A stretch of DNA of 63,068 bases, counting the filler, from Collodictyon triciliatum (lineage: Eukaryota), in assembly GCA_043381765.1 (NCBI GenBank). It is 31 parts of 31 records of this genome, joined end to end, with 100 filler letters (N's around TTAATTAATTAA, not from the genome) between each part and the next. Parts side by side here need not be neighbours in the genome. Positions count along the whole stretch, not along the records: positions 46,912 to 48,845 come from JBHJMP010009878.1; 30 more parts are not named here. The stretch is one strand, 5' to 3'. Below, in pieces: positions 46,956 through 48,444 of the stretch. The notes beneath the pieces are model-generated. The model was not told the origin of the DNA. It made no database searches and saw nothing but the letters and a program-made list of their open reading frames with translations. Positions within the stretch are counted from its first letter, which is position 1. The number at the start of each line of letters is the position of its first letter. The position numbers were made by a program, and so were the translations under genes.

Positions 46956-46958
<3 letters not shown>

Positions 46959-48444
46959 AGGCAGAGTTACAAAAGTTAAAAAAAAGCCATATTCAAGAAA
47001 CTCGAAATACCGGAACAATATAAAGAATGGGCTACAACGCATTTGCATCGTATCATTCCCAGTGATATTGTAAATGGTATCGAATATGACGTCAAAGTCA
47101 ATCCAAATAAGTACATTCCATGTCTGATTTACACGAATCGCATTTTTGAGGACATTGGAACCTAAACTGTTTCAACCATCTCTATAAGAACTACCAATAC
47201 ACCATGTCATATTACTCTAAATACTGCACATATTTGATTGGTCTATTAGTATTATCTGGAAAAACATTATTACTGAAGAATATATCAGGATGCAAAGAGA
47301 CCCTATGGGATAATTTCTTTGAAATGAAAAAGAGGGGTTTCATCGAACAGACTACATTTTTAAATACATGATACAAACAGACGGGTTGGCGGTGTCATTA
47401 TTGTTTGAAGAGAAAGGTATTTCAAATTCAAAATCCAATTTAATCAAACGACCCAAGAATGTATTTATATAGATGAACTTTCTGAAGAGCAGTTATCTTT
47501 ATTAGCGACAAAAAAAATGGAGTGGACGCAGGCAAGTTTAATTTGGTTTACATAGTGGATGAGACAGGTAGAAATTACGTTACACGGCACACCAAAGAAG
47601 ACATGATAGCAAATCTCTTAAAAATCACAAAATACTTTTGTGCGAGAAAGAAAAGTATAATGCTTCAGGGATATGCATGACAACAGATTTACAAAGTGCT
47701 ATTTCTTTTGGTCACATGACTTTTGAAGAGAATCAGCAGTTTGAGACATCAAGAGTATCTTTAATTGATTTAGAGACAGAACTGAGTAAACATAATTCAT
47801 GCACGGTCAATTATGAAAAATTTCGAGAGTATTTATCTATGAAATCAAGATGCCAGATAGGATTATCCAGATTTTATGGGCAGGTAACTTTTCGAAAGAT
47901 GAGATGAAGACAGTATGCTAATACAAAAAGAAGTGAACAATTGTTTATGGACCGAATCGAAAAGACATTTGGCGAGGATGTTGTACTGGCGTATGGAGAC
48001 TGGGGCAGAAATTGTCCGATTAAACATTTTATGTCAACAATCGGAAGAGGATTACGAAAAATACTATCCAAACGTTTTGAGACAGTAAGTGTAGATGAAT
48101 TTAGAACGTCCAAGATGTGTTACAACTGCGAAAAAGAACTGGAATATATGAAACCGAAAGGAAATTCAAAAAAAAAAAGCATATATATGTCTCATATGTA
48201 AAGAATGAAATCGCTCAGAAAGCAAACAAAGTGTATTCCTGACAAGGGACTTTAACAGCGCCATAAATATACTCAACAAAGTTGTTTTAATTATTCAAAA
48301 TATTCATACACCTTCCTCTAAAAAATAGGCTGTTGGGTCTCTCCTGGCAGCCTTAACCACTACATAACCATGTGAAAAAAGTGGTGAGACCTTGAATACT
48401 AGCGCATCAAGTTTACCAATCGAAAGGTGGTGTACCCCTTACAG
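46956..48444 (+). mobile_element. Fanzor1-like transposon copy D (pseudogenised; 5' end missing)
   Basis: KYMIQTDGLAVSLLF (47361-47406), GVDAGKFNLVY (RuvC-I Asp at 47525), LRYTAHQRR, FGEDVVLAYGDWG, VDEFRTSKMCYNC (48091), RDFNSAINIL (48245). Premature TGA at 47905 and frameshifts. Confidence 0.92.
48327..48444 (+). ncRNA. Putative Fanzor omegaRNA scaffold, copy D
   Basis: AGGCTGTTGGG..CCTGGCAGCCT hairpin, ACCACT..CACAT-like/ATGTG..AGTGGT hairpin and GTTTACCA..TGGTGTAC terminal hairpin. Confidence 0.65.

Follow-up and report, generated by a model that had tools for sequence, protein, structure and literature searches.

We analysed a 63,068-nt stretch of the draft genome of Collodictyon triciliatum (Eukaryota; GCA_043381765.1), hereafter the window, and describe in it a family of Fanzor1 elements, which are related to the RNA-guided nucleases of the TnpB group. 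The best explanation, which we hold with high confidence, is that the window contains four independently decayed copies (A to D) of one Fanzor1-family element, gene and right end together, scattered in the genome of an AT-rich eukaryote, probably a freshwater protist. Our analysis shows directly that the copies exist, which family they belong to, how they are broken and that they diverged near-neutrally.

At the level of the DNA, a blastn comparison of the contig of copy D with all contigs found the same element on exactly four of the 31, with pairwise identities of 80.7-89.5% over 258-977 bp (E-values from 1e-90 down to 0). A multiple alignment of copies A to D displayed a single colinear element, with these extents by blastn:
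8662-9644, minus strand: copy A element.
22484-24402, minus strand: copy B element, which runs off its contig at the 5' side.
34700-35072, plus strand: copy C element, which starts at the contig edge.
46952-48436, plus strand: copy D element, with a 45-nt poly(A) ahead of it where the contig begins.

Copy A is genuinely truncated at its 5' side, where it abuts unrelated GC-rich sequence. Homology of all four copies stops at a common point (about 48436 in copy D), and the flanks beyond it are unrelated. A profile hidden Markov model (HMM) built from 30 intact relatives was also run against 2232 six-frame fragments of the window. It matched 18 of them at E<=0.005, all 18 on the four copy contigs and colinear with the profile; thus, four copies in 31 contigs is an exact count for this window.

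We aligned each copy to P0001, the closest intact relative (648 amino acids, aa), using a frameshift-aware dynamic programme. P0001 was 62-64% identical to all four copies, within its residues 83-642, and the gene remnants are:
8733..9633, minus strand: copy A, a 5'-truncated Fanzor1 pseudogene (P0001 aa 346-642) with 4 in-frame stops and 4 frameshifts.
22557..24402, minus strand: copy B, a Fanzor1 pseudogene (P0001 aa 83-642) with 2 stops and 14 frameshifts, its D364, E555 and D604 codons intact.
34702..35005, plus strand: copy C, a 3' piece (P0001 aa 546-643) cut by the contig edge, with 1 stop and 1 frameshift.
46952..48364, plus strand: copy D, a Fanzor1 pseudogene (P0001 aa 173-642) with 3 in-frame stops and 9 frameshifts.

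For the family assignment, we used a 209-aa fragment of copy D (47572-48201), which is open once its single in-frame TGA is read as tryptophan. Against the sequences of solved structures, it matched PpFz1 (E 1e-12), SpuFz1 (4e-9) and GtFz1 (4e-8), and its sole other match was a stray one at E 0.07. A word-indexed protein search returned intact relatives of 578-698 aa, the best being P0001 (66% identical to the fragment), and in an exhaustive HMMER search the cluster representatives at E<=1e-3 numbered 1908. P0001 itself matched PpFz1, SpuFz1 and GtFz1 at E 2e-28 to 4e-23 (phmmer, solved structures), and the full-length profile of 30 relatives matched solely these three among solved structures, at 1e-91 to 1e-69 and over nearly the whole length of the profile.

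The fold led to the same family. The full-length fold, N-terminal REC/WED half included, was judged on P0001 alone, the window copies being too broken to fold. Its AlphaFold2 model, built with the alignment of 30 relatives, reached a pLDDT of 83 and a pTM of 0.81. In a Foldseek search with this model, ranks 1-7 were all Fanzor1, with TM-scores of 0.73/0.78 for SpuFz1, and the next match was a Cas12 at 0.31/0.27.

A different reading would make these elements a prokaryotic TnpB insertion sequence, present as contamination, or a Fanzor2. The RuvC and zinc-ribbon core that the three groups share gives this idea a foothold: Pfam PF07282 (Cas12f1-like TNB, a zinc ribbon) matched the copy D fragment below its cut-off (E 0.029) and four of six scanned relatives at E 3e-6 to 1e-4, one of these above the cut-off, and Cas12, TnpB and Fanzor2 structures do appear in the Foldseek list. 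However, phmmer and the family profile matched Fanzor1 only among solved structures, and the TM-scores of the mimivirus Fanzor2 ApmFz2 (0.21/0.27) and of ISDra2 TnpB (0.21/0.33) are far from those of SpuFz1. Moreover, the family relatives measure 600-700 aa and include the extended N-terminal half of Fanzor1, and the surrounding contigs look eukaryotic. We give this alternative almost no weight. Solved-protein sequence matches, the fold of P0001 and the conserved catalytic positions together support that the window family is Fanzor1.

Regarding those catalytic positions, the residues invariant in the 30 relatives are D364 (GVDPGK), G521 and W523 (YGDW), E555, T558 and S559 (EFRTSK), and R603 and D604 (RDxN). 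In Fanzor proteins the active site is described as rearranged: Gly or Pro stands in for the canonical RuvC-II Glu, and another Glu about 45 residues downstream compensates for it (PMC10530073). Our family has a Gly at the canonical RuvC-II site and a Glu downstream of it, which fits that published arrangement; in P0001 the alternative Glu (DEFRTSK) lies 34 residues downstream of the YGDW Gly, versus the published figure of about 45. The cysteines of the CxxC..CxxC ribbon, which sits between RuvC-II and RuvC-III, are conserved in the family. In copy D, the corresponding features are:
47525..47527, plus strand: RuvC-I Asp codon, GAC in GVDAGK, aligned to the invariant D364.
47995..48003, plus strand: the G-D-W of YGDW, with Gly at the canonical RuvC-II Glu position (G521 and W523 invariant).
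48097..48099, plus strand: alternative RuvC-II Glu codon, GAA in DEFRTSK, aligned to the DEFRTS of PpFz1 (E555 invariant).
48118-48129, plus strand: first CxxC of the zinc ribbon, after DEFRTSK.
48248..48250, plus strand: RuvC-III Asp codon, GAC in TRDFNSA (R603 and D604 invariant).

The codons of D364, E555 and D604 all survive in copies B and D, and copy C retains those of E555, the ribbon cysteines and D604. Copy A has Gly in place of the RuvC-I Asp (GGC, 9571-9573), and in copy D a stop (TGA, 48206-48208) replaces the fourth ribbon Cys.

An earlier note on this DNA, made from the sequence alone, had reported four homologous segments on separate contigs. Both blastn and the profile HMM found exactly those four, with ends only a few bases from the ones it gave. 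Its motifs (YLAKQM..NN, IP.HI..DT, TDG, GVDAG, LRYT..QRR, YGDW, DEFRTSK, CxxC..CxxC and RDFNSA) are all present in the frame-tracking alignment to P0001. It had also called the family Fanzor1 and proposed HMMER and AlphaFold comparisons. These returned Fanzor1 matches, and the call is borne out by the profile search of solved structures, the fold of P0001 against SpuFz1 and the conserved residues.

All four copies are pseudogenes decaying near-neutrally. Together they carry 10 in-frame stops (TAA, TAG and TGA all occur) and 28 frameshifts, and none of the four is open. The stops of copy D are at 47905-47907 (TGA for Trp), 48206-48208 (TGA) and 48326. The lesions are at mostly different sites in each copy, and the few shared positions are A-runs. 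Half of the frameshifts (14/28) adjoin homopolymers of at least five bases, versus a background of 14-21%; some of these may come from slippage or sequencing error, whereas the ten stops and the remaining 14 frameshifts come from neither. The differences between copies B and D are flat over codon positions (59/65/55), and dN/dS was 0.43-0.90 over the six copy pairs. Thus, most of the divergence arose without constraint, although an early part may have been constrained.

Could the genes be functional, with breaks that are in fact introns, homopolymer sequencing errors or a non-standard code? The homopolymer frameshifts would favor it, introns are described as possible in Fanzor genes (PMC10530073), and reading TGA as Trp opens one break of copy D. 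Nevertheless, the breaks are 1-nt indels without extra sequence and mostly at a different site in each copy, the in-frame stops span all three stop codons, and copies A and B have TGG at the TGA of copy D. Copy A is without its RuvC-I Asp, substitutions are flat over codon positions, and long standard-code open reading frames (ORFs) are found elsewhere in the window. We consider functional genes very improbable and keep to the reading of decayed copies.

Other readings of the copies were rejected one by one. Introns were dismissed, given 1-nt indels with no extra sequence bounded by GT..AG. An alternative code with TGA as Trp was rejected for copy D, as TGG stands there in copies A and B and in nearly all public contigs. 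A retrocopy origin would predict poly(A) after the right end, which is seen in none of the four copies; the poly(A) of copy D stands upstream, where the contig begins. On two contigs of a public sequencing run (X2), poly(A) does follow the right end.

Copy B also holds two private insertions:
22869..22928, minus strand: 60-bp insertion flanked by an 11-nt direct repeat.
23799..23881, minus strand: 83-bp insertion flanked by a 15-nt direct repeat.
They were rejected as introns, being without GT..AG ends within the flanking repeats. Each opens with a T-rich motif of 27-28 nt ending in GTGCA, which is found again, 96% identical, on two unrelated contigs (43863-43890 and 19877-19903; E about 1e-8 and 4e-8). 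Either a short dispersed element or templated filler DNA may explain this motif.

To place the element beyond the window, we turned to public sequencing runs. None contained the exact stretch, and 14 runs, none of them listed as RNA, shared 0.04-0.09 of the sampled words. Contigs of four of the runs were placed on the element at a likeness of at least 85%. Short contigs lay along the whole element: 273 in X4, 260 in X11, 116 in X2 and 15 in X1, with identities from <90% to >99%. As many as 18 distinct contigs overlapped at one position, and none of those placed was long enough to display an open gene. X4 and X11 are RNA by guess only, and their contigs are not evidence of expression. At 47907, where copy D has its TGA, every other contig of X1, X2 and X11 reads G, and so does X4 in 159.6 of 178.5 of its depth. 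Besides, many public contigs have differences of 1-2 bases that would remove frameshifts of copy D. The stop at 47907 and most frameshifts of copy D are therefore private to it, and the consensus of the copies is plausibly open, as far as these aligned contigs tell. The public contigs support a multi-copy family with an open founder, from which the members decayed independently of one another. In JGI metagenome contigs, a 106-aa ORF of copy A as query found 11 loci, the best at 44-49% identity, and no member of the same repeat family.

The earlier note had further described copies A, B and D as broken at different sites, which is mostly so in the P0001 alignment, and copy C as only a 3' fragment, which agrees with a 3' piece cut by the contig edge. 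Its suggestion of a high-copy family is backed qualitatively by the public contigs, those of X4 and X11 above all. Overall, its account of the copies and of their family stood; it left out the neutral decay of the pseudogenes, the giant-virus subfamily and the published sharing of such elements between viruses and hosts.

That giant-virus subfamily emerged from the relatives of P0001. Its ESM Atlas neighbours fall in clusters with PF26935 (DUF8286), whose members of known taxon are 92-100% viral, mostly Nucleocytoviricota. In the viral_contigs collection, P0001 alone as query gave no confirmed locus; a scan with a five-sequence alignment gave 36 loci, most on contigs named GVMAG and up to 47% identical to P0001. 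We translated 28 of these, leaving out eight duplicates or partial matches, and 27 of the 28 had uninterrupted ORFs of 604-710 aa. Genes nearby include VLTF3-like, mRNA capping enzyme and ribonucleotide reductase genes. At four of six viral loci tested, a divergent upstream ORF (300-346 aa) is a DDE_3 transposase with a helix-turn-helix; the upstream ORFs of the other two, L005 and L006, are of similar size with no DDE_3 match.

A FastTree phylogeny covered 102 rows: 72 proteins of 560-760 aa, the 27 viral ORFs and read-throughs of three window copies, in which X stands at each break (copy C, locus L025 and shorter proteins were left out). In it, the window copies made up a star-like clade (support 100) whose sister was P0001 (100). 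The sister group of this joint clade (99) comprised five viral rows and two without a label. By these sequence comparisons, the window copies belong to a Fanzor1 branch found mainly in giant viruses. The direction of transfer is not readable from the tree, because it is unrooted and most of its rows are unlabelled.

These relatives raise the idea that the copies are endogenised giant-virus DNA, that is, fragments of giant endogenous viral elements (GEVEs), instead of products of transposition in the host. This is a sub-variant of the explanation given above, and its case lies in the relatives: the nearest ones of known context are on giant-virus contigs close to the viral genes just named, the Atlas neighbours are overwhelmingly viral, and published GEVEs hold Fanzor1, with an 80% identical fragment described in a host chromosome (bioRxiv 10.1101/2024.09.03.611062). 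The window itself speaks differently. The flanks of the four copies are mutually unrelated right beyond the right end, and those of copy A are GC-rich, with microsatellites as in other contigs and the start of a tryptophan synthase alpha gene. Moreover, none of the 10 large window ORFs scanned is a viral hallmark gene, and the 11-19% divergence and star-like clade fit amplification followed by decay in one genome. We regard viral remnants as unlikely, although less so than functional genes, and continue with copies of an element that multiplied in the host genome.

All four copies share a conserved right end of about 115 nt, which takes in the last codons and runs up to the point where homology stops:
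8662..8775, minus strand: copy A right end, conserved.
22484..22599, minus strand: copy B right end, with hairpins (z = -4.6).
34957..35072, plus strand: copy C right end, conserved.
48322..48436, plus strand: copy D right end, overlapping the last ~14 codons and extending ~70 nt beyond, with four predicted hairpins.

RNAalifold predicted four hairpins in this right end, with one compensatory change from G-C to A-U, in copy D. The omegaRNA of Fz1 is described as overlapping the C-terminal coding sequence (Saito et al., PMC10432273). By position and shape, and by analogy with that system, the right end may be a candidate omegaRNA scaffold. Since the copies are 81-90% identical, its conservation proves little.

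The last hairpin of the right end (stem ACCAA/TTGGT) differs among copies in its loop, at approximate positions. The loop reads CGAAAG in copy D (48418-48426) and CGAAAT in copy A (8676-8684), and it is the reverse complement, CTTTCG, in copies B (22494-22502) and C (35054-35062). This difference resembles a hairpin-loop inversion, which suggests palindrome formation in DNA or RNA.

Putting these elements together, we infer an omegaRNA, past activity, a transposase partner and a route of arrival. The ancestral element encoded a TnpB-derived, RNA-guided DNA endonuclease of ~640 aa. Its split RuvC had the Asp in GVD.GK, the Gly at the canonical RuvC-II site in YGDW, the relocated Glu in DEFRTSK and the Asp in RDFNSA, and a CxxC..CxxC zinc ribbon separated RuvC-II from RuvC-III. 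If it worked like the characterised Fanzor1 systems, a guide RNA would be transcribed from the ~115-nt right end and would acquire its guide by reading into the flanking DNA. Matching DNA beside a transposon-adjacent motif would then be cut by the nuclease, which may have aided the persistence or spread of the element. The lineage belongs to the Fanzor1 branch borne mainly by Nucleocytoviricota, where the intact gene often adjoins a divergent DDE transposase of the IS630/Tc1-mariner type.

Several observations weigh against parts of this account. For the putative omegaRNA, there is a single compensatory pair among four near-identical copies, the fold z-scores of the single sequences are mixed (-2.1, -4.6, -0.2 and -1.4), Rfam gave no match at E<=1 on the contig of copy D, and a covariance model of the right end, run against the window and the 36 viral loci, matched the four window copies alone. 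For the transposase partner, the transposases of the viral relatives had no match in the window better than E 0.76, and no left end is seen for the window copies; it lies beyond the contigs. For the decay, some of the frameshifts beside homopolymers could be sequencing errors, and three of the six copy pairs have a dN/dS of 0.43-0.65, which suggests that some divergence arose under constraint in lineages still active. Finally, the contigs are just 1.9 kb long and may belong to a viral insert, and intact copies may be present elsewhere in the genome, beyond these 31 contigs.

A bolder scenario is that a giant-virus-type Fanzor1 invaded a freshwater protist and multiplied there to tens or hundreds of copies, of which a few intact and active ones survive elsewhere with their guide RNA. 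We think it improbable and state it for what it would mean: if active copies did survive, they would offer a natural record of the virus-to-host spread of an RNA-guided nuclease, and a new compact nuclease with its omegaRNA. More soberly, the window adds one eukaryotic genome where a giant-virus-type Fanzor1 multiplied and then decayed. This fits the published picture in which giant viruses bring selfish nuclease elements into their hosts. Intact relatives are plentiful (the 27 open viral ORFs and the 1908 cluster representatives), so the dead copies are not needed as a nuclease source; given RNA data, the right end could help to define the omegaRNA of the subfamily.

The window comes from a fragmented, AT-rich eukaryotic draft assembly. 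Its contigs, of ~1.94 kb, are separated by joints of the form N44-TTAATTAATTAA-N44, and three have internal N gaps. GC content ranges from 0.31 to 0.51 per contig, many contigs have simple repeats at their ends, and none of nine telomere-type repeat motifs tested was found in the window. The large ORFs of the other contigs, in the standard code, encode WD40, NHL-repeat, FG-GAP, Cu/Zn superoxide dismutase and ephrin-receptor-like cysteine-rich proteins. Features observed besides the Fanzor1 copies are:
2653-3988, plus strand: WD40 propeller followed by a long SQ repeat.
8175-8372, minus strand: start of a tryptophan synthase alpha gene in GC-rich DNA (Pfam Trp_syntA, E 3.5e-7, above cut-off); a CAAAAA-type microsatellite lies between it and the right end of copy A, the two being ~300 bp apart.
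11278-12156, plus strand: Cu/Zn superoxide dismutase.
12333-14081, plus strand: 582-aa ORF with ephrin-receptor-like cysteine-rich repeats and DUF7630, then a long, hydrophobic, multi-pass-like C-terminal half.
16555-17943 and 39272-40549, both plus strand, on two separate contigs: NHL-repeat beta-propeller proteins.
48948-49724, plus strand, and 61139-63067, minus strand: ORFs of 258 and 643 aa, rich in Q/N/K/E, with no Pfam match at E<=1e-3.

Among known systems, the characterised nucleases SpuFz1 (8gkh), PpFz1 (9cf0) and GtFz1 (9cer) share with the window family the RuvC Asp, relocated Glu and Asp, and the G.W at the old RuvC-II site. Their DE[FY][RK]TS-CxxC ribbon and overall fold also match those of P0001. 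They differ in sequence, with 18-20% identity to the P0001 model in Foldseek alignments, and the window copies are pseudogenes. P0001 is much closer, forming a clade with the window copies at a support of 100, but it is an open 648-aa ORF on a 2.6-kb contig and too diverged to belong to the same repeat family.

Fanzor1 elements and their sharing between viruses and hosts, degraded host fragments included, are already published. Fz1 is reported from protists and giant viruses (Saito et al., PMC10432273), and in a Chlamydomonas GEVE Fanzor1 elements are described beside an IS630/Tc1-mariner transposase, with gene-plus-right-end forms, degraded copies and the host-chromosome fragment mentioned above (bioRxiv 10.1101/2024.09.03.611062). 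As described there, the Chlamydomonas copies are >99% identical, expressed and equipped with a transposase, whereas the window copies differ by 11-19%, are dead, and have neither transposase nor left end in the window. The likeness to the window family is drawn from that description, not from sequence: in both cases a Fanzor1 lineage is shared by giant viruses and a host, and four of the six viral relatives tested also lie beside a DDE_3 transposase.

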